Made by a program: the position numbers and the translations under genes. DNA of 64,000 nt from Escherichia phage vB_EcoM_ESCO10, in the sequence record OM386655.1; one strand, 5' to 3'. Positions 14,491 through 59,026 of the stretch are shown piece by piece. Within the stretch, counting starts at the first letter, position 1. Every line of letters begins with the position of its first letter. The notes beneath the pieces are model-generated. The model searched no databases. It saw only the letters and a list, made by a program, of their open reading frames with translations, and was not told where the DNA came from.

Positions 14491-16613
14491 TACATTTTGA
14501 ATTTAGTTGGTAAAGCGGAGATGTTCAAAGATGCTGCAAGGATTTCCATAGCTTCGTTGCTTTCAGAAATAGATTCACTAATCAAGAATTGGCTGAATCC
14601 ATCCATCAGGCGAACTTCGCCGGTTTCCATCAAATGGTCACCATCGTAAACAGATTCGCTGAGCTCTGAAGGAGGTGTTACGGTAGCTTCCATAAGGTAT
14701 TTGTGAGACACTCTATCATTCATGGCAAAAGCCGCTACTTTATCAACCTTCAACAATAATCCGCGCGGAAGGATAATTTCTGCTTCTTCGGCATATTCTG
14801 TAAGGTCGCCGGGAGCGATAACTTTAACTGCTTCAGCACCTCGAATAACCATACCAATTTCAGCAATTCTATCCGCAGGGCCTTCAGGTGCAATTGGATT
14901 ACCAAACTCGTCTTCTTCCCATTCTACCTCTTCGTCATCGACTTCACCCACATCAGATGAACTACCACTAGCCAATTTAAACAACTCATCAGCGGAGGAT
15001 AAAGAACCTTCACCACCAACAAAAACGGCTTGGTTGTCGAGGGCCATATAATTTTTACCGAATTCACCAAAGATGTTAGGCTTTAATGAGGCTGACACAA
15101 AGTTCTTAAAGTAAAATGTTTTGTTATCGATATTATGGCGCAGAATTTTGTATGGCAAATCCTGACCACGATACAAAATAGTACCCTTAGGAAGTTTAAT
15201 ACCCTTAGTAAATGCTGAGTCTAAATCCTTAATCAATTTAATAGCCGTTGTATTGTTTTCGGATTCAGGTTTACCTAAAAGGAATAAGTTCATAGGAGCA
15301 TATTCAGCTGCGCAATATTCAATAATAGCGTTGCTTTCGTCTTTGGTTAGGTCCTTAGGTTTAATGAGCTCACCTGAATAAGCATATGCATCACTAATAG
15401 AATCGTTAATTAGTTTATAAACGGCTTCCATAGCGAAAGCAATTCGAGAGGCCTTTTCTGAAGGGGAGCCTTTAAAACGAGCGCTCAAGTTATTAACAAT
15501 TTTCTTAATAATATCCAGACTATTGGTGGTATTGATTTGCGAAAGGCCGCTTAAAAGTCTATCGACTTCTGTATTAAAAAATGCCATATTTTTAGAGTAA
15601 ATTTCAAACCCTTGTTTATCTCTATTAGCATAATTTAGTTTAAATTTACTATCAGTCATTAAAGCGTGCGTGAGAGCAATGGTGTATCTAAAGTTGGCAA
15701 GGTCCTCGCTCTTAGATTTAAACTGAGAAGCCTGGCGCATTTTGGTAATAGCACCTTTTTTAAAGTTCTGGCTAATCTGTTCAATACCTTCATTCTCAGG
15801 GCCTTCGGCAGTGTGAACCGGTACAGAAGCTTCAAATTCGTTATATACCTGCAATTCTTTAGGGGACAAAGTTTCAGGCTCAGCAGTAGAATACTGTGCG
15901 GCTGCTGCCATACGACGGGAAATCTTAGTACGGGTAATGACAGCCTTATCAGTACGTTTCTCTTCAACCTTAGCGATACTTGCCGCCATAGCTTCGACCT
16001 TACTTACGGCTTGACCTGTTTTCTTAGAAACATAAACTTCACCAACTTTAGACTCGACCTTAGTATAAAGATCGGCATCAATTTCAGGCATACCTTTGAT
16101 ATCTTCGATATTAGAACCACGACGTACTAAAAGAACGTAGGTATGTTTTCCACTGAATTGGAACATATCATCAACAACTTTAAACTTACCACCAGTACGA
16201 GCCATTACTAAACGAGCCAATACACGTTGTACAGTAGGGCCCTTACCTTTCATTTTCTTAGTAGGGAAACGGAACAGAACTGCGTCCATTTTAAGTTTGT
16301 TTACTTGTTCATATACTGTATCGAAAATAGTATTCAATGCACCAAGTGGGTCAGAACCAAGTCCACCTTTGAGTTCAGCCGGGGCTCCTTTGCTTGACAA
16401 ACTCATTAGAATAACATGAACATATTTGTCACCCGGCTTAACCATTTTAACTGCGTCTCCTTGAGACGCATAAGATACCATACGAGCAACAAGGTTATCA
16501 TTACCTGGAGCTTGAATAGAGAAAATCTGTGGGATACCGGAACCTGGTTTAAGATTTGTTACTGGATAGTTTTTAGCGGAATCACTATCAAAAACTTCGT
16601 TTAAATTTTCCAT
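14490..16613 (-). CDS. Alt-like ADP-ribosyltransferase paralog (divergent copy)
   Basis: N-terminal third similar to the adjacent alt product; R (YRGQ), S-x-S (FVSASL), E-x-E (EEAEIILPRG) motifs; acidic insertion. Confidence 0.8.
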   Translation of the reverse strand: MENLNEVFDSDSAKNYPVTNLKPGSGIPQIFSIQAPGNDNLVARMVSYASQGDAVKMVKPGDKYVHVILMSLSSKGAPAELKGGLGSDPLGALNTIFDTVYEQVNKLKMDAVLFRFPTKKMKGKGPTVQRVLARLVMARTGGKFKVVDDMFQFSGKHTYVLLVRRGSNIEDIKGMPEIDADLYTKVESKVGEVYVSKKTGQAVSKVEAMAASIAKVEEKRTDKAVITRTKISRRMAAAAQYSTAEPETLSPKELQVYNEFEASVPVHTAEGPENEGIEQISQNFKKGAITKMRQASQFKSKSEDLANFRYTIALTHALMTDSKFKLNYANRDKQGFEIYSKNMAFFNTEVDRLLSGLSQINTTNSLDIIKKIVNNLSARFKGSPSEKASRIAFAMEAVYKLINDSISDAYAYSGELIKPKDLTKDESNAIIEYCAAEYAPMNLFLLGKPESENNTTAIKLIKDLDSAFTKGIKLPKGTILYRGQDLPYKILRHNIDNKTFYFKNFVSASLKPNIFGEFGKNYMALDNQAVFVGGEGSLSSADELFKLASGSSSDVGEVDDEEVEWEEDEFGNPIAPEGPADRIAEIGMVIRGAEAVKVIAPGDLTEYAEEAEIILPRGLLLKVDKVAAFAMNDRVSHKYLMEATVTPPSELSESVYDGDHLMETGEVRLMDGFSQFLISESISESNEAMEILAASLNISALPTKFKM

Positions 16614-16616
16614 TAT

Positions 16617-18701
16617 TTACCCTTGGATGAATTTTTCTGGGATGTCGTCAAAATCAATACATGAAGCCAAAAGAGGCAACACATCAAAACGTGTGGATTT
16701 TACAAATGAGTCAAAGGACACAGGACTTTCGGAAGTATCAAAATCATCTTGGTATACAGCCAATTCACCGGTTTCCATTAATACGTCACCATCATACACT
16801 ACAGATTCTTGAAGCTCATCTGTTGTCATAACTTCAGCTTGAATGAGCTTTGTATTACTAGATGTTGTCCCGTCATTATTAGAAGCATCAGTTATTTTAT
16901 TAACTTTGACCATCAATCCGCGCGGTAGAATAACTTCAGCTTCTGTTGCTATACCTAATTGGCCTGGATAAACAACATTAACTTTATGAGCACCGTCAAT
17001 AGCCCATCCTATTTGAACTTTAACGTATTCAGGATTTTCTCTATATGCTCTTATTTCGCTTGGGTTAATAGTTATTCCTTCTTCATTTTTATCAACTGTT
17101 AGTTCATTGCGAGCTTCTGGTTCTAAAAGACCCACGCCAGCGTGAGTAACACCAAAACGACCAAAAATAATAGGAGTCAGTGAAGTAGATACAAAATTTC
17201 TAAAATAGAACACTTTATTTTTAACTAGTGCTTCGTATATAGGAGCAGTCATACTTTGGGCACGATAAACTGTAATGCCTTCTGGTATACGGTCTCCATT
17301 TTCAAAAGCTGAATCCAGATTATTAACGGCAGATTCGATATCTTTTTCGCCCATAACCTCATAGTTCTGAGGATTATAACGTCCTAAAAGAAGGTTATTG
17401 ATATCACCATATCCGGAACCACAATATTCACGAATACCACGTTTTTGAGAAGGGGTATATTTATCTGCACTATGACCCAAAGTAATATCAACCATAATAC
17501 CGCCGCCCACACCAGCAAAACTATACACACGTTTTTTAATGAACTTGGTCTTGGCTGCTTTCCACTTGGACTCAGTCAATTCATTCCAGAGGTCATCAGG
17601 TTGCCCTTTACGGGTTTTGTTGTGCGTGGCCACCCACTCGCCTTTATATTCTTCGAAGACACTGTTAATAACCGAAGCATATTTTTCCAGAGCTTTAACA
17701 GATGTTAAAGGTTCATTTTTGATAGCCGTAAGGATTCTCTCTTTAATTTTCTCTTGGATTTCACCAATAGCATGAAGTGGGAACATTTTATATTCGTAAT
17801 GCAACTCTTCAGCAGTACCTTCAGCCACTATATTAACAACCTTATTTTTAGCCGCTGGAGAATTATTATTCGTAACCATTTCCTGCGCGTCAGGGATTAA
17901 TGGAGCTGTAGCCGGTTTATTAAAATCTGCTGAAGTAGCTTCATACTTCTTAAACAGTTCGCTTTCATTACGATAAGATTCTAACGATTGGCTTGCTGCA
18001 ATCGCTCGCCGCGAAATCTTAGTTTTGGTTATAACCATTTTATCAGTGCGACGTTCTTCAACTTTAGCAATACTGCCGGCAATAGCAGTTTCTTTAGTAA
18101 CCTGCACGCCTTCTTTTTTAGAAATATAAACTTCACCAACATCAGAATCTACCTTAGTATACAGTTCAGCATTAATTCCTGGCATACCTTTGATATCTTC
18201 GATATCAGCTTGTTTACGAACTACTAGGATATACGTGTGTTTACCTGTAAATTGGTACATGGCCGGAACTACTTTGAAGCGTCCGCCTGTTTTTTGAGTT
18301 ACTAAACGTTGGATAATTCTCTGGACAACAGGACCTTGACCTTTCATTTTCTTGGTAGGAAAACGGAACATAACAGCATCCATACGAAGCTTTTTAACTT
18401 GTTCGAATACTACGTCGAAAATGGTATTAATAGCATCAATAGGAGTAGGGCCTAAGCCGCCTTTAAGTTCAGCTGGTGAACCTTTAGCTGAAAGGCTCAT
18501 AAGGATGATGTGGGCGTATTTATCACCTAATTTAACCTGTTTAATAGCATCGCCTTCAGAGGCATAAGATACCATACGAGCAACCAATTGGGATTCGGCA
18601 TTACCGATCTTCCAAATCTGGGGCACTTTAAGTTTTGGGTTTAAGTTTACAGTAGGCAGGGTGCCTTCAGACTCAAACACTTCATTTAATTGTTCGGTCA
18701 T
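16617..18701 (-). CDS. alt: Alt ADP-ribosyltransferase (packaged, modifies host RNA polymerase in T4)
   Basis: close match to T4 Alt incl. C-terminus ...LPRGLMVKVNKITDASNNDGT...IQAEVMTT; R/STS/ExE motifs. Confidence 0.9.
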   Translation of the reverse strand: MTEQLNEVFESEGTLPTVNLNPKLKVPQIWKIGNAESQLVARMVSYASEGDAIKQVKLGDKYAHIILMSLSAKGSPAELKGGLGPTPIDAINTIFDVVFEQVKKLRMDAVMFRFPTKKMKGQGPVVQRIIQRLVTQKTGGRFKVVPAMYQFTGKHTYILVVRKQADIEDIKGMPGINAELYTKVDSDVGEVYISKKEGVQVTKETAIAGSIAKVEERRTDKMVITKTKISRRAIAASQSLESYRNESELFKKYEATSADFNKPATAPLIPDAQEMVTNNNSPAAKNKVVNIVAEGTAEELHYEYKMFPLHAIGEIQEKIKERILTAIKNEPLTSVKALEKYASVINSVFEEYKGEWVATHNKTRKGQPDDLWNELTESKWKAAKTKFIKKRVYSFAGVGGGIMVDITLGHSADKYTPSQKRGIREYCGSGYGDINNLLLGRYNPQNYEVMGEKDIESAVNNLDSAFENGDRIPEGITVYRAQSMTAPIYEALVKNKVFYFRNFVSTSLTPIIFGRFGVTHAGVGLLEPEARNELTVDKNEEGITINPSEIRAYRENPEYVKVQIGWAIDGAHKVNVVYPGQLGIATEAEVILPRGLMVKVNKITDASNNDGTTSSNTKLIQAEVMTTDELQESVVYDGDVLMETGELAVYQDDFDTSESPVSFDSFVKSTRFDVLPLLASCIDFDDIPEKFIQG

Positions 18702-22939: not shown

Positions 22940-22970
22940 TTTATTATCCTTTGGTTTGATTTCGTATTAT

Positions 22971-23005
22971 TTGGTACAGGTCTATAATAACACAACCTGT
23001 ACCAA
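22971..23005. repeat. perfect 10-bp inverted repeat flanking the -10 element
   Basis: TTGGTACAGG ... 15 nt ... CCTGTACCAA. Confidence 0.7.
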
Positions 23006-23012
23006 AGTAAAA
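22984..23012 (-). promoter_or_regulatory. sigma70-like early promoter
   Basis: minus GTTTTAC, 17 nt, TATTAT. Confidence 0.4.
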
Positions 23013-23015
23013 CAT

Positions 23016-23348
23016 TTATTTCACAACATTCCAATTTTTCATATCAAGTTTACCAACTTTTTTCATCTGAGCAATCAGACGTTCGGCACGCTCACGAGCA
23101 GTAACATAATAGAATTCACCGATTTTGTTTTCTTCAATACGACCTGTAATTACAGTTTTCAGTTCATAAATCCAACCTGTAAAGAAGTTGTGAAGCTCGA
23201 TAGTAAAGGTGAAATCAGTACCCATACCTTCAGTGGTTTCAACTTCAATAATATCACCTTCAACCGCTGTCAGGACCCACATGGTTTCTTGATATTCACC
23301 GTTGAAACATTTAGCTTTAACAGATGCATTCAGGTTTACAGTTTTCAT
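23016..23348 (-). CDS. hypothetical protein (110 aa)
   Basis: ORF track; GGAGAATAAAATG SD. Confidence 0.5.
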   Translation of the reverse strand: MKTVNLNASVKAKCFNGEYQETMWVLTAVEGDIIEVETTEGMGTDFTFTIELHNFFTGWIYELKTVITGRIEENKIGEFYYVTARERAERLIAQMKKVGKLDMKNWNVVK

Positions 23349-23389
23349 TTTATTCTCCAGTTTGTTTTCGTATTTGTTGGTACAAGTCT

Positions 23390-23418
23390 ATAGTATCATG
23401 CCTACTGGAGAAGTAAAC
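23390..23418 (-). promoter_or_regulatory. sigma70-like early promoter
   Basis: minus GTTTAC, 17 nt, TACTAT; flanked by 8-bp inverted repeat 23354-23361/23404-23411. Confidence 0.5.
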
Positions 23419-23436
23419 ACTTTTTTAAAGATACAG

Positions 23437-36254: not shown

Positions 36255-37932
<1,678 letters not shown>

Positions 37933-37941
37933 TATATTTCC

Positions 37942-38184
37942 TCAAACAGACTTTTTCACAATTTTCCAATCGGCTTTGAACTGGTCAACATCAGAGTGGT
38001 GAATCCAGAAACCAGATGAGCTACCATCTTCATAAAGAGGACAACCATCACACTCATCTTTCCAACCCATTGCACACAAAGTTTCTTCTGCTTTTTCCAG
38101 AGCTTCTGGATTATTACCTTGGATTGTGAAGTACCATTTGCCTTTAACTTCTGAATCTTTGATTGATTCACGTTTTAATTTCAT
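37942..38184 (-). CDS. hypothetical protein (80 aa)
   Basis: ORF track; GAGGAGAATAAAATG SD. Confidence 0.5.
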   Translation of the reverse strand: MKLKRESIKDSEVKGKWYFTIQGNNPEALEKAEETLCAMGWKDECDGCPLYEDGSSSGFWIHHSDVDQFKADWKIVKKSV

Positions 38185-38210
38185 TTTATTCTCCTCAAGT
38201 TGATAAGGCT

Positions 38211-38240
38211 ATAGTATCACTACCATAGCCTGTTGTAAAC
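38211..38240 (-). promoter_or_regulatory. sigma70-like early promoter
   Basis: minus GTTTAC, 18 nt, TACTAT; 7-bp inverted repeat 38206-38212/38225-38231. Confidence 0.45.
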
Positions 38241-38242
38241 AT

Positions 38243-38470
38243 TTATTTTTGAATTAAGCCCATATAAAATTCAGCATCTTCAGCATGCATACCATCACAA
38301 TACTCGTCAGCCATAAAACGAGTCAGGTCTTCAAGAGGACCTTGGATTTCAATTTGGATACTAAAGAATTGAGTATCTTTGATGTAAGCCATACTCAAAG
38401 AAGGATAACGATTACGGATAACTTCGTAAGTGTATTCAAAATCGACGATATCAATATTAACTTTAGCCAT
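38243..38470 (-). CDS. hypothetical protein (75 aa)
   Basis: internal ATG with GAGGAAAATAAAATG SD; track TTG extension rejected. Confidence 0.5.
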
Positions 38471-38475
38471 TTTAT

Positions 38476-38511
38476 TTTCCTCATGTTTTGATATGTCTAT
38501 AGTATCATGTT
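38476..38511 (-). repeat. 36-bp promoter/5'UTR cassette, copy 1 of a perfect direct repeat
   Basis: TTTCCTCATGTTTTGATATGTCTATAGTATCATGTT identical to 39162-39197. Confidence 0.8.
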
Positions 38512-38527
38512 TAAAGGGGTTGTAAAC
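38499..38527 (-). promoter_or_regulatory. sigma70-like early promoter
   Basis: minus GTTTAC, 17 nt, TACTAT. Confidence 0.5.
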
Positions 38528-38531
38528 TACT

Positions 38532-38801
38532 TTATGAAATTTTATCAAGCCATTTGCCAAGTTTAATCATTTCTTTGGTGGCCTTTTCCATACTTCTGAA
38601 CTTAACTAATAAAGGATAAGTATCTACACCCATAACTAAAGTGGTTACAAGACTATGCTCACCTACAAGCCATAGAGAATACGTTTGAATATCAAGTCCG
38701 TAATTTCGGTCTTTATGGACACGTACACCCATCACTTCAAACTGTTCGCTGGCTTTTTCTACTGCATCCAGGAAATCATCTTTAGTCATATTAAATTCCA
38801 A
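38532..38801 (-). CDS. hypothetical protein (89 aa)
   Basis: ORF track. Confidence 0.45.
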
Positions 38802-39156
38802 AGGTAGCTTTAATCAGGGCAATGACTTCAGCAGCATTTTTGTGATTAACCTGCACATGAATGGTTTGGGTGTCAACAACAGGAGCATCTTCATCAACTT
38901 CTAGGAAGTGTCGGAATTCACCTTCAGCGAGTTCAAAGTACTCATCAGCATCATCCATACTATCCAAGATGGTACCATCTTTCATTTCAACTTTTTCGAC
39001 AAAATAATTGCCATCAATAAAGCACATATCCAGGACTTTGAAGGAACTGCCATGCTGTTCCATCAGCTTGACCATGCGCGAATTATCATCCGGACAGTCG
39101 GCGATGAAACGTTTTTTAGCAGCAGGGTCTAATACGTAAGTTTTACCAGTTTCCAT
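38791..39156 (-). CDS. hypothetical protein (121 aa), acidic
   Basis: ORF track; GAGGAAATAAAAATG SD. Confidence 0.5.
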   Translation of the reverse strand: METGKTYVLDPAAKKRFIADCPDDNSRMVKLMEQHGSSFKVLDMCFIDGNYFVEKVEMKDGTILDSMDDADEYFELAEGEFRHFLEVDEDAPVVDTQTIHVQVNHKNAAEVIALIKATFGI

Positions 39157-39161
39157 TTTTA

Positions 39162-39197
39162 TTTCCTCATGTTTTGATATGTCTATAGTATCATGTT
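39162..39197 (-). repeat. 36-bp promoter/5'UTR cassette, copy 2
   Basis: identical to 38476-38511. Confidence 0.8.
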
Positions 39198-39213
39198 CCT
39201 AGAGGATGTAAAC
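39185..39213 (-). promoter_or_regulatory. sigma70-like early promoter
   Basis: minus GTTTAC, 17 nt, TACTAT. Confidence 0.5.
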
Positions 39214-39224
39214 CATTAAATGCC

Positions 39225-39249
39225 AAAAAGGGAAGACCGAAGTCTTCCC
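39225..39249 (-). terminator. intrinsic terminator after gene 32
   Basis: GGGAAGAC-UUCG-GUCUUCCC 8-bp stem then UUUUUGGCAUUU on minus strand. Confidence 0.65.
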
Positions 39250-39265
39250 ATTATAAATCAATAAC

Positions 39266-40171
39266 TTATAGACCAGCTAACAGGTCGTCCAGACCATCGT
39301 CATCAGAAGGACTTACTGACGGCTCAGGAGTAGTGGAACGAGTTGGTGTAGATGGTTTGGAGTCATATGCATCAAGGTCTGCACTGAATGCGTCCAGGTC
39401 ATCACCAATCTTATCAGCGGCTGCAGAAGCTTTAGCGGCAGCACCACCAAGAGCAGCTGTACCAACAACTTTCTTAAACTTGGCTTCGTTAGTTTCAAAG
39501 GATTTGAATTCGAGCAGTTTAGAAAGGTCGTGCATTTCTTCCATCAATTTAGCTTGATAAGCTTCGTCATTGATGTTAGGAATTTCGGACTGGTTCATGA
39601 ACTTGGAATCGTCATAGTTCTTGAAGTCGCCAACTTTCTTAGATTTCAGTACGAAGTTCGCACCATCAAACGGACAAGTGGCATCAATTGGTGTTTCACC
39701 AATATCAGTGTCAACTTCAACCATCTGGTTGATTTTATCCATGATTTTCTGACCGAAACGGAATTTAAACACTTTACCTTCATTAGCAGGCACTGCACTA
39801 TCCTTAATAACAAGGATGTTAGCCCAGAAGGAAGTTTTACGTTTCATCAGTTTGTATTCAGCGTTATTAGTATTAAAGCTGTCGTTCTGGTTCATGTATT
39901 TACATACAGGACATGAATCGAAATCACCGTGAGTAGACGTACAGTTCTCAATGTACCATTGACCATTTTTCTTGAAGCCGTGGTTAACGAGCTTAACGAA
40001 TGGAGATGGGTTTTCTTCGTTTTTCGAAGGAAGGAAACGAATTACCGCAGTACCAACGCCGTTGTCATCTTTCAATTTCCATTCAGCTTTATCGTCGGAA
40101 GAGAAAGAAGAGCCACCTTTCATAGCGGACAGTTGAGCAGCCAGTTGGGCAGGGTCTTTACGTTTAAACAT
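39266..40171 (-). CDS. 32: single-stranded DNA-binding protein gp32
   Basis: matches T4 gp32 from MFKRK; acidic C-terminal tail; alternative ATG 6 nt upstream. Confidence 0.95.
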
Positions 40172-40242
40172 TGACATATTATTTACCTTAGCAGATTTTA
40201 GCAGTTGTATTTTATACACAGTTTTTAACAGATTGAGTTAGT

Positions 40243-40267
40243 ATATTAACACATTTAATATGAAGCA
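40243..40267 (-). promoter_or_regulatory. MotA-dependent middle promoter for gene 32
   Basis: minus aTGCTTca, 14 nt, TAATAT; AU-rich leader follows. Confidence 0.35.
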
Positions 40268-51200: not shown

Positions 51201-51821
51201 CGTGGACAGACTATTAAAGGTAAACCAAGTGGTCGTGCAGTGTTGAGTGCAGAAGCTGATGGTATTAAGTCTCACAACCATGGCGGCTCTGTTGCGAGTA
51301 CTGATTTAGGTACTAAAAACACCTCATCATTTGATTATGGTACTAAAAACACCTCATCATTTGATTATGGTACTAAAACCAGCAACACAACAGGTAACCA
51401 TAACCATAGCGTTAGTGGCAATACTGGCGCAGCAGGTAATCATCAGCACTCACAGACAGGTCCAAGAGGTCCTAATAATCAACCAACAGGAATATTTCCT
51501 AATGGAGCTACTCAAATTAGTGGAACCCAGGTTGTTTCTTTTGGCATAAGCAACGGTGTTGTGCCTGGTGTAAACCAATATATTGCAAAGTCATCGACAG
51601 AAGGTAACCATACACACTCTTGGTCTGGAACTACAAATACCACCGGTAACCATGCCCACACCGTTGGTATCGGTGCTCATAGTCATTCGGTCGGTATTGG
51701 TGCTCATAGTCATTCGGTTGCAATCGGGTCCCACGGTCATGGTCTTACCATAAATAGTACAGGTAATACAGAAAACACGGTTAAAAACATTGCTTTTAAC
51801 TATATCGTTCGCTTAGCATAA
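48273..51821 (+). CDS. 37: long tail fiber distal subunit gp37 (receptor-binding tip with His-box repeats)
   Basis: 1182 aa; C-terminal G-N-H-x-H-S repeats; followed by gene 38. Confidence 0.9.
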   Translation: MATLKAIQFKRSKTAGAKPTVDQLVEGELAINLRDRTIYTKTDQNQIIDLGFAKGGQVDGDILQNGTFNLNGNMFVYAGKYIEFLPKTAGNGAWANQHLTKAPIFADLSSTASVSEYHPLIKQRYKDGTFSAGTLVSEGSFRVHYIDSTAPDNSKHWVFNRNGNFIVDSGSIEVRTGNISASGNINSANGIITGPEIVTKNINFSTKPFIANANIGYDWVSLPTWVYNPPADGSDNTTNGLNYLRKLRASSASSIFHEIADCRKGKPQEISWWTGVGPASFQWAFDTSGRITAGKSISVGLPDNGANGRYPLDSAISIGIAIGDNDTGIKWVRDGVYDLMANGISSATILNNGINSTKKLMVGYSRDSGSTWDFPNNNQAMFTARTDVDGNNNGDGQTHIGYSSNAKMYHYFRGAGRMSVSMAEGLIVEPGILDIKTGSNSVAIRADGTINSTQRISMRTGLFLNGDDNTNALSFKAPSGVDGTKTINWDAGIRNGQNKNTVTLKAWGNSFNAGGGNRETVFEVSDSQGYYFYAQRTNPAVAGGIGPVNFKFNGTIETGHIIGLGDITASGTGSFGGNVTMTNGLFVQGGSSITGQVKIGGTADALRIWNAEYGAIFRRSEDKLYIIPTPQNAGESGGISNLRPFYITLSTGQVSMDHVVDIGGGRFKVDTTGTTAGQRITVNAASDAVVLNAPNQESSNFIQGRKANVTKWYLGIGDGGNVVRMHNYTYAHGIALNADTVDITKALKIGSDIRIGLDGNITGSTALENFKNLNTTLNRKVNVGTWSGGAAAGWYKFATVTMPQSVATAQFKITGGNGYNVNSSEQATITEIVLRTGNNNPKGINATLWARTGNGFTNIATINTSGDDYDVYLYVGTYADKLIVEYDYTANTRYISVVGLNDVNQTPVAELPTGHQRGQVYMMYSDAQIPYPVGAPIPWPSDSVPAGFALMEGQTFDTGAYPKLAAAYPSGTIPDMRGQTIKGKPSGRAVLSAEADGIKSHNHGGSVASTDLGTKNTSSFDYGTKNTSSFDYGTKTSNTTGNHNHSVSGNTGAAGNHQHSQTGPRGPNNQPTGIFPNGATQISGTQVVSFGISNGVVPGVNQYIAKSSTEGNHTHSWSGTTNTTGNHAHTVGIGAHSHSVGIGAHSHSVAIGSHGHGLTINSTGNTENTVKNIAFNYIVRLA
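51309..51368 (+). repeat. perfect 30-bp tandem duplication inside gene 37
   Basis: ggtactaaaaacacctcatcatttgattat x2 encoding GTKNTSSFDY twice. Confidence 0.9.
51663..51716 (+). repeat. 27-bp near-perfect tandem repeat in gene 37 His-box region
   Basis: two units encoding VGIGAHSHS with two synonymous differences. Confidence 0.8.
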
Positions 51822-55576: not shown

Positions 55577-55610
55577 TTTAATCTCCGATAACCATTTATT
55601 TGATAGGTCT

Positions 55611-55639
55611 ATAGTATCATGTTTAAAGCATAAGTAAAC
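55611..55639 (-). promoter_or_regulatory. sigma70-like early promoter for motA
   Basis: minus GTTTAC, 17 nt, TACTAT. Confidence 0.55.
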
Positions 55640-58971: not shown

Positions 58972-58997
58972 AATCATCTCCATTAGTTGATAGGTCT

Positions 58998-59026
58998 ATA
59001 GTATCATGTCTAATAGAGATGTAAAC
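58998..59026 (-). promoter_or_regulatory. sigma70-like early promoter
   Basis: minus GTTTAC, 17 nt, TACTAT. Confidence 0.5.

Follow-up and report, generated by a model that had tools for sequence, protein, structure and literature searches.

The 36-bp perfect direct repeat that flanks two small genes in the window (the whole stretch of 64,000 nucleotides analysed here) is made of the -10-to-Shine-Dalgarno (SD) parts of two neighbouring early promoter units. These units quite probably bound a PeSL-type cassette, have been homogenised by exchange and constitute a substrate for recombination. The two copies share variants that are private to them, and in natural relatives the cassette is absent, relocated or expanded, with breakpoints in the units. 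Recombination between units appears to have produced these arrangement variants, and it may be continuing in the window phage.

The window comes from a T4-type myovirus whose closest genus is Dhakavirus. VR5 is 93.9% identical across the interval, and the closest records are approximately 88-94% identical to the window, none of them above about 90% over 24 kb. All genes of the region 37942-40171 lie on the minus strand, and along the direction of transcription the order is 59, 32, a hairpin, a promoter unit, frd.2 plus an 85-aa ORF, a promoter unit, frd.3, a promoter unit, frd.1, an 80-aa ORF, frd and td. Three promoter units are found within 1 kb, from gene 32 to frd.1, and the gene content of this interval varies among relatives. 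The conserved gene 5' of the cassette is gene 32 (39266-40171, minus strand, start at MFKRK), which encodes the single-stranded DNA-binding protein and whose product has 97-98% amino acid identity to the annotated gp32 of Dhakavirus relatives. A terminator scan identified the gene 32 hairpin, GGGAAGAC-UUCG-GUCUUCCC followed by a run of five U, at 39225-39249 (minus strand). It has an 8-bp GC-rich stem, a UUCG loop and an RNA folding energy of -14.5 kcal/mol (z = -3.2), is kept in VR5, JS98, NC-G and AnYang, and supplies the upstream promoter-stem-loop unit with its stem-loop half.

The first gene of the cassette is a frd.2-like gene of 121 aa (38791-39156, minus strand; Pfam FRD2 PF03197, E 1.3e-32), whose product is 98% identical to VR5_240. 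The T4 frd.2 gene is a non-essential early gene, since its amber mutants plate normally, and its product has a predicted LSm-like fold (PMC12152347). The second gene, here called orfX, encodes 85 aa (38532-38789, minus strand) and belongs to the JS98 orf232 family (phrog_4423, E 2e-49). The original prediction had placed two ORFs between the repeat copies. Both exist, but they are on the minus strand, and the second probably begins at the ATG at 38789 rather than at 38801, which leaves an overlap of a few bases between its start and the frd.2 stop. Homologs of orfX were found in 349 phage records, unrelated siphoviruses among them. The dispensability of frd.2 in T4 and the occurrence of orfX in many unrelated phages fit a dispensable and exchangeable module. 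Homologs of orfX about 60% identical are present in myoviruses of approximately 150 kb and in a T1-like phage, and others with 39-51% identity in Klebsiella and Pseudomonas siphoviruses, which makes orfX a widely travelling small gene. Behind the downstream repeat copy lies a frd.3-like gene of 75 aa (38243-38470, minus strand; Pfam Phage_FRD3 PF05798, E 1e-37), followed by a frd.1-like gene of 80 aa with a DUF5417 domain (37942-38184, minus strand; Pfam PF17438, E 3e-35) and by the 80-aa ORF between frd.1 and frd (37690-37932, minus strand; phrog_4308). No Pfam family was assigned to orfX or to this 80-aa ORF, and PHROGs gives function-unknown families only for both.

An exact match search found TTTCCTCATGTTTTGATATGTCTATAGTATCATGTT exactly twice in the window, at 38476-38511 and 39162-39197 (plus-strand coordinates), the second of these being the upstream copy in the sense of transcription. 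The identity first noticed at these positions therefore stands. The copies are 686 bp apart from start to start, and the window holds no third match with up to three mismatches permitted. None of 100 dinucleotide-preserving shuffles contained a match, and the chance expectation of a 36-bp exact repeat is zero. Around the repeat, ungapped similarity extends over 70 nt with 84% identity (38467-38536 versus 39153-39222). The exact 36-mer had no match among the IMG/VR viral contigs and JGI metagenome contigs, so that these collections yielded neither a near-identical phage nor a deletion variant of the lineage. An assembly artefact was rejected as the source of the repeat, since the order 32/frd.2-orfX/frd.3 is common to VR5, NC-G and VR26, and since 36 bp is too short to mislead assemblers.

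Read on the minus strand, both copies are AACATGA-TACTAT-AGACATATCAAAACAT-GAGGAAA, and each spans from just 5' of an extended -10 (TGaTACTAT) through the presumed transcript start and the leader to the SD sequence GAGGAAA. This agrees with the proposal of a duplicated early promoter/5'UTR unit, each copy being the -10-to-SD part of a T4-type unit on the minus strand. The further claim of a -10 and a transcript start in each copy holds for the TG-extended TACTAT, which is present in both, while the start is placed by geometry. The upstream unit, P_frd.2, occupies 39153-39222 on the minus strand, with its -35 TTTACA at 39207-39212, TG-extended -10 TACTAT at 39185-39190, SD GAGGAAA at 39162-39168 and ATG at 39154-39156; its spacing puts the probable start near 39178. 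The downstream unit, P_frd.3, occupies 38467-38536 (minus strand), with TTTACA at 38521-38526, TACTAT at 38499-38504, the SD at 38476-38482 and the ATG at 38468-38470, and its start would likewise fall near 38492. A third and more diverged unit, P_frd.1, is found at 38178-38250 on the same strand (-35 at 38234-38239, -10 at 38211-38216). TTTACA, 16 nt by the counting of the scan, and TG plus TACTAT make up the geometry of both repeat copies and of the third unit, and in both repeat-bearing units the ATG follows GAGGAAA after 5-6 nt. Promoters of the T4 early type are recognised, as soon as infection begins, by the host sigma-70 RNA polymerase in its unmodified form, with a start about 7 nt after the -10. 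The upstream copy (39162-39197) is predicted to drive the cassette and the downstream copy (38476-38511) to drive frd.3. RNA folding found no stable fold upstream of P_frd.3, because the orfX stop codon is only 5 nt from its -35, and P_frd.3 was consequently rejected as a full PeSL. A riboregulatory element in the repeat was also dropped as a candidate, the shared leader being unstructured (0 kcal/mol).

In order to separate what is common to the promoter family from what is particular to this pair, the early promoter units were compared with each other. The window has 12 credible early-promoter units, all on the minus strand, and an independent repeat search grouped six of these as a 70-nt family. 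A core of about 20 nt, GATACTATAGACCTATCAA, is common to at least five window units and to all orthologous units in relatives. Among the units sharing it are the one before the MotA gene (phrog_1345, E 2e-89) and the one near 58998; the shorter related versions predicted at motA and around 58981 were indeed recovered, as 22-23-nt cores at 55601-55623 and approximately 58987-59009. The longest in-register exact run among the 12 units is 36 nt for the frd.2/frd.3 pair, followed by 23 and 22 nt, with a median of 8. The orthologous pair shares 19-25 nt in seven relatives (VR5, NC-G, JS98, IME281, IME341, QL01 and dhabil). Compared with at most 23 nt elsewhere in the window and 19-25 nt in the relatives, the identity of the window pair is exceptional.

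A trace of exchange shows when 25 units, drawn from nine genomes, are aligned. The A in AGACATATC, a private C-to-A change, is confined to the two window copies, and the same position, the central A of AGACATATC, is C or T in all 23 other units. In addition, the post-gene-32 (frd.2) unit of the VR5 and NC-G group typically has the leader AAC-ATGAGG. Only in the window is the AAC leader found within a frd.3 unit, all other aligned frd.3 units having CTAC or CTAA. The top database match to the core of the window frd.3 promoter is the frd.2 promoter of NC-G, and a megablast search of phage records with the 106-nt frd.3 promoter unit returned no identical unit. A private variant in both copies, together with a frd.2-type leader in the frd.3 unit, indicates an exchange of sequence between the two units within the lineage of the window phage. 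Most simply, one unit received from the other a tract no shorter than about 12 nt and no longer than 36 nt. The route could have been gene conversion, or two unequal crossovers, the first duplicating the cassette and the second deleting one copy.

The comparison with related phages that had been proposed as a check found the cassette variable rather than invariant: it is absent in AnYang and relocated or expanded elsewhere, and the breakpoints lie within promoter units. With gp32 as the anchor, loci were taken from IMG/VR and GenBank and their gene order was determined by tblastn. Since the regular expression used for promoters missed the GTATACA and GTGTACA -35 boxes of the VR25/VR26-type loci, those intergenic regions were read directly. 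With a slash for a promoter unit and a hyphen between genes that share one unit, the window, VR5, NC-G and VR26 are 32 / frd.2-orfX / frd.3 / frd.1; JS98 and IME281 are 32 / frd.2a-frd.2b-orfX / frd.3 / frd.1; and dhabil and QL01 are 32 / frd.2b-orfX / frd.3 / frd.1. In IME341, 32 / frd.2b-orfX / frd.3 / frd.2a / frd.1, the frd.2a gene has moved past frd.3. VR25 is 32 / 85-aa frd.2-like / frd.2-orfX / frd.3 / frd.1, and L012, an IMG/VR genome of 170,336 bp near VR25 and VR26, is 32 / frd.2b-like / frd.3 / frd.2-orfX / frd.1. Wherever intergenic regions of Dhakavirus and VR-type genomes were read, each slash is an early-promoter unit. As gene order, RB51 has 32, frd.3, frd.2-orfX, frd.1, and T4 has 32, frd.3, frd.2, frd.1; the T4 frd.3/frd.2 boundary carries a hairpin without a promoter. 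The rearranged homology blocks of VR26 and L012 overlap by approximately 20-30 nt at the SD-ATG and -35 motifs, which places the breakpoints inside promoter units.

A cassette-free arrangement occurs in Escherichia phage AnYang (MK234886.1 and the RefSeq duplicate). A synthetic deletion junction of 965 nt, composed of the 3' end of gene 32, the hairpin, one promoter unit, frd.3 and frd.1, was matched by AnYang without a break over 964 nt, with 93% identity. All other records that cover at least 80% of this query (34 records in total, GenBank and RefSeq duplicates being counted separately) needed two or three pieces. The AnYang annotation has a frd.3 homolog directly after gp32, and both window units align onto a single AnYang unit of 63 nt, whose upstream half is of the post-gene-32 type and whose downstream half is of the frd.3 type. 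Searches of the complete 169,215-bp AnYang genome with Frd.2, the JS98 Frd.2b and orfX (tblastn) and with the cassette DNA (blastn) gave no match. AnYang thus genuinely lacks the cassette, and its junction consists of exactly one unit. This state could be ancestral and precede insertion, but a deletion seems more likely, given that almost every other Dhakavirus genome has the module. As AnYang alone is without the cassette among the 34 records, loss must be rare or selected against. The original suggestion that direct repeats of this kind are substrates for loss or gain of the cassette gains support from the AnYang junction and the relocated modules.

On a larger scale, Frd.2, orfX, Frd.3 and Frd.1 of the window are 90-97% identical in amino acids to those of the VR25/VR26-type loci (L010-L012), and the flanking proteins gp32, Frd and Td are 72%, 63% and 66% identical to theirs, respectively. 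The entire small-gene block 37942-39156 looks as though it has been horizontally exchanged between genera.

Such mobility lends some weight to a different history, one of recent insertion, in which frd.2-orfX would have come in on a promoter-bearing circle or through exchange with a related phage during co-infection, and the integration itself would have made the flanks identical. The module does move among genera (90-97% identity to the VR25/VR26 type, against 72% for gp32 and 63% for Frd), orfX is 96% identical in some Tequatrovirus genomes, and an integration model is already published (PMC2839356, PMC4122927). We nevertheless regard this history as unlikely. The arrangement 32 / frd.2-orfX / frd.3 is common to VR5, NC-G and VR26, so the insertion would be older than the window lineage, whereas the perfect identity is private to the window. 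A single crossover, moreover, swaps flanks, and a private variant in both units requires an associated conversion. No donor phage having a single unit with the AGACATATCAAAACATGAGG tract was found in IMG/VR, the JGI metagenomes or the INPHARED phage records.

Selection for the same strong promoter, leader and ribosome-binding site, with no role for recombination, would account for the core of about 20 nt, whose presence in at least five window units and in the orthologous units of relatives is what promoter function predicts. As an explanation of the whole repeat, however, it is very improbable. The same two promoters work with different leaders in the seven relatives, where they share just 19-25 nt; the private C-to-A change is in both copies and in no other unit, and selection would not yield that twice; and the breakpoints of the cassette polymorphisms sit in the units. 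Least credible of all is that breaks by a homing endonuclease, encoded by a seg-type gene beside gene 32, led to co-conversion with the promoter repeats as bystanders: such a gene lies between 59 and 32 in VR5, NC-G and AnYang, though not in the window, and homing endonucleases are named as a further source of plasticity in such regions by Comeau et al. 2014 (PMC4122927), but co-conversion brings in donor sequence and leaves unexplained an intragenomic repeat with a private variant, breakpoints at promoter units on both sides of the module and a deletion exact to one unit. In the window just 96 nt (40172-40267) separate genes 59 and 32, and the same gap holds a seg-type homing endonuclease gene in T4 as well as in VR5, NC-G and AnYang. 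Homing endonucleases near gene 32 in some relatives may add to the mosaicism between phages.

Exchange between the two promoter units is therefore the reading that we retain, and a mechanism can be proposed for it. The core of about 20 nt, taken as shared by all early promoters of the window phage, would have a functional cause. The additional identity would have arisen when the frd.2-type leader and the private C-to-A change were copied into the frd.3 unit in the window lineage. The resulting homology would be a substrate for the very active general recombination of the phage. A crossover anywhere in the repeat would release a 686-bp circle with one promoter, frd.2 and orfX, and would leave behind gene 32 with its hairpin, a single promoter that is hybrid but intact, and frd.3. 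Since the hybrid promoter before frd.3 would be intact, expression of the neighbouring gene would be preserved after the crossover. The module would be inserted elsewhere if the reaction ran backwards or took place at another promoter unit. About 50 bp are reportedly needed for recombination at full efficiency in T4, a figure attributed to Singer et al. in 1982, and as the repeat of 36 bp is below this threshold, the events should be infrequent. It is also imaginable, but in our view improbable, that the units are more than passive homology, that concerted evolution through frequent conversion between neighbours within the genome keeps them long and perfect, and that frd.2-orfX is consequently a high-frequency mini-circle, the exchange perhaps being sequence- or structure-specific at the hairpin-promoter rather than of the UvsX type. 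Arbiol et al. and Comeau et al. do not decide between a homologous and a site-specific reaction (PMC2839356, PMC4122927).

The proposed mechanism has close precedents. According to Arbiol et al. 2010 (PMC2839356), small ORFs of phages RB49 and phi1 that are flanked by units of a hairpin and an early promoter are excised as mini-circles; sequenced circles had their crossovers between the -10 and the ATG or SD, about one circle was present per 1e5 virions, and relatives differed by PeSL-flanked cassettes. The likeness to the window includes the composite of terminator hairpin, sigma-70-type early promoter, SD and ATG; the repeated units flanking small non-essential ORFs in plastic regions; and close relatives in which the flanked ORFs have been deleted, inserted or replaced, with one hybrid unit remaining. 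The segment of the mini-circle crossovers, from the -10 to the SD or ATG, is the segment that is identical in the window. There are also differences from the same account: the window -35 is TTTACA, of the T4 type, and that of the RB49 PeSL is TTGACA; the window genes belong to the recognised families FRD2 and phrog_4423, unlike the ORFan cassettes of RB49 and phi1; and the mini-circles were seen by experiment, whereas the window cassette is known from sequence alone. In the window, unlike in the RB49/phi1 PeSLs, the hairpin is confined to the upstream unit.

Comeau, Arbiol and Krisch 2014 (PMC4122927) carried the PeSL model over to T4/PST and vibriophages and also reported "half" PeSLs. The T4/PST phages dealt with there belong to the same subfamily as the window phage, and the window units fit their early-promoter consensus TTTACW-N17-TAYWAT, with the qualification that the spacer is 16 nt by the counting of our scan against the N17 of the consensus. 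In the same study, "half" or degraded PeSLs stand beside indels, a class ("1/2 PeSL") to which P_frd.3 of the window corresponds, and models of excision and integration account for differences in topology between phages. The available text of PMC2839356 and PMC4122927 yielded no treatment of the gene 32-frd interval or of Dhakavirus. Both articles refer to the internal-protein (IP) loci of T-even phages, where Repoila et al. 1994 found conserved regulatory sequences flanking variable small genes and proposed shuffling (PMC2839356, PMC4122927). As cited there, the IP loci differ from the window in position and in repeat sequence, and the study of them had no worked-out mechanism. Integron cassettes may also be likened to the locus, as small promoter-associated modules with excised circles, re-entry at defined sites and essential genes left intact; the reference list of Arbiol et al. 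includes an integron review (Mazel 2006; PMC2839356). Unlike integrons, the window system has no integrase, attC or attI, would depend on general homologous recombination and has an own promoter for each module.

By the features that define PeSLs, the window has a dispersed repeat beside variable small ORFs, represented by the six-copy family of 70 nt. Both repeat-bearing units have sigma-70-type -35/-10 spacing, with an SD and a start codon at the 3' end, and relatives differ in the flanked ORFs with junctions in units (AnYang, L012, RB51, JS98 and IME341). The locus is a further example, fully resolved in sequence, of the published PeSL-type promoter-bounded cassette and not a new mechanism, and it leaves the current view of T4-like phage evolution unchanged. 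Its value is that one locus presents all the predicted states, namely perfect flanking repeats, a trace of exchange, a one-unit deletion junction and a module past frd.3. For the engineering and sequencing of therapeutic T4-like coliphages, it implies that a 686-bp segment could drop out with the expression of the neighbouring gene unharmed.

Other variable or repeated sites were observed in the window. The slot between frd.1 and frd (37690-38184; loci L001-L008 and L027) is also variable, and contains one 80-aa ORF in the window, two other ORFs in VR5 and JS98, one ORF in dhabil and none in QL01 and AnYang. The window ORF is preceded by an SD only, with no promoter unit, so recombination between promoter units does not account for the variability of this slot. 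A second pair of related early promoters is found on the minus strand at 22940-23030 and 23350-23433, 406 bp apart and flanking a 110-aa ORF (23016-23348). Their leaders are unusually long and similar (TAGACcTGTACCAA..AATACGAAA.CAAAC), and the segment 22940-23433 may be another promoter-bounded cassette. At 171-452, repeats with a period of 9 nt encode collagen-like Gly-X-Y triplets and form eight overlapping units of 84 nt. The segments 16015-16490 and 18109-18584, which are 2094 bp apart, have 73-85% identity over 100-263 nt, which suggests a paralogous gene pair. Finally, a 30-nt unit is repeated in tandem at 51302-51361 with 93% identity.
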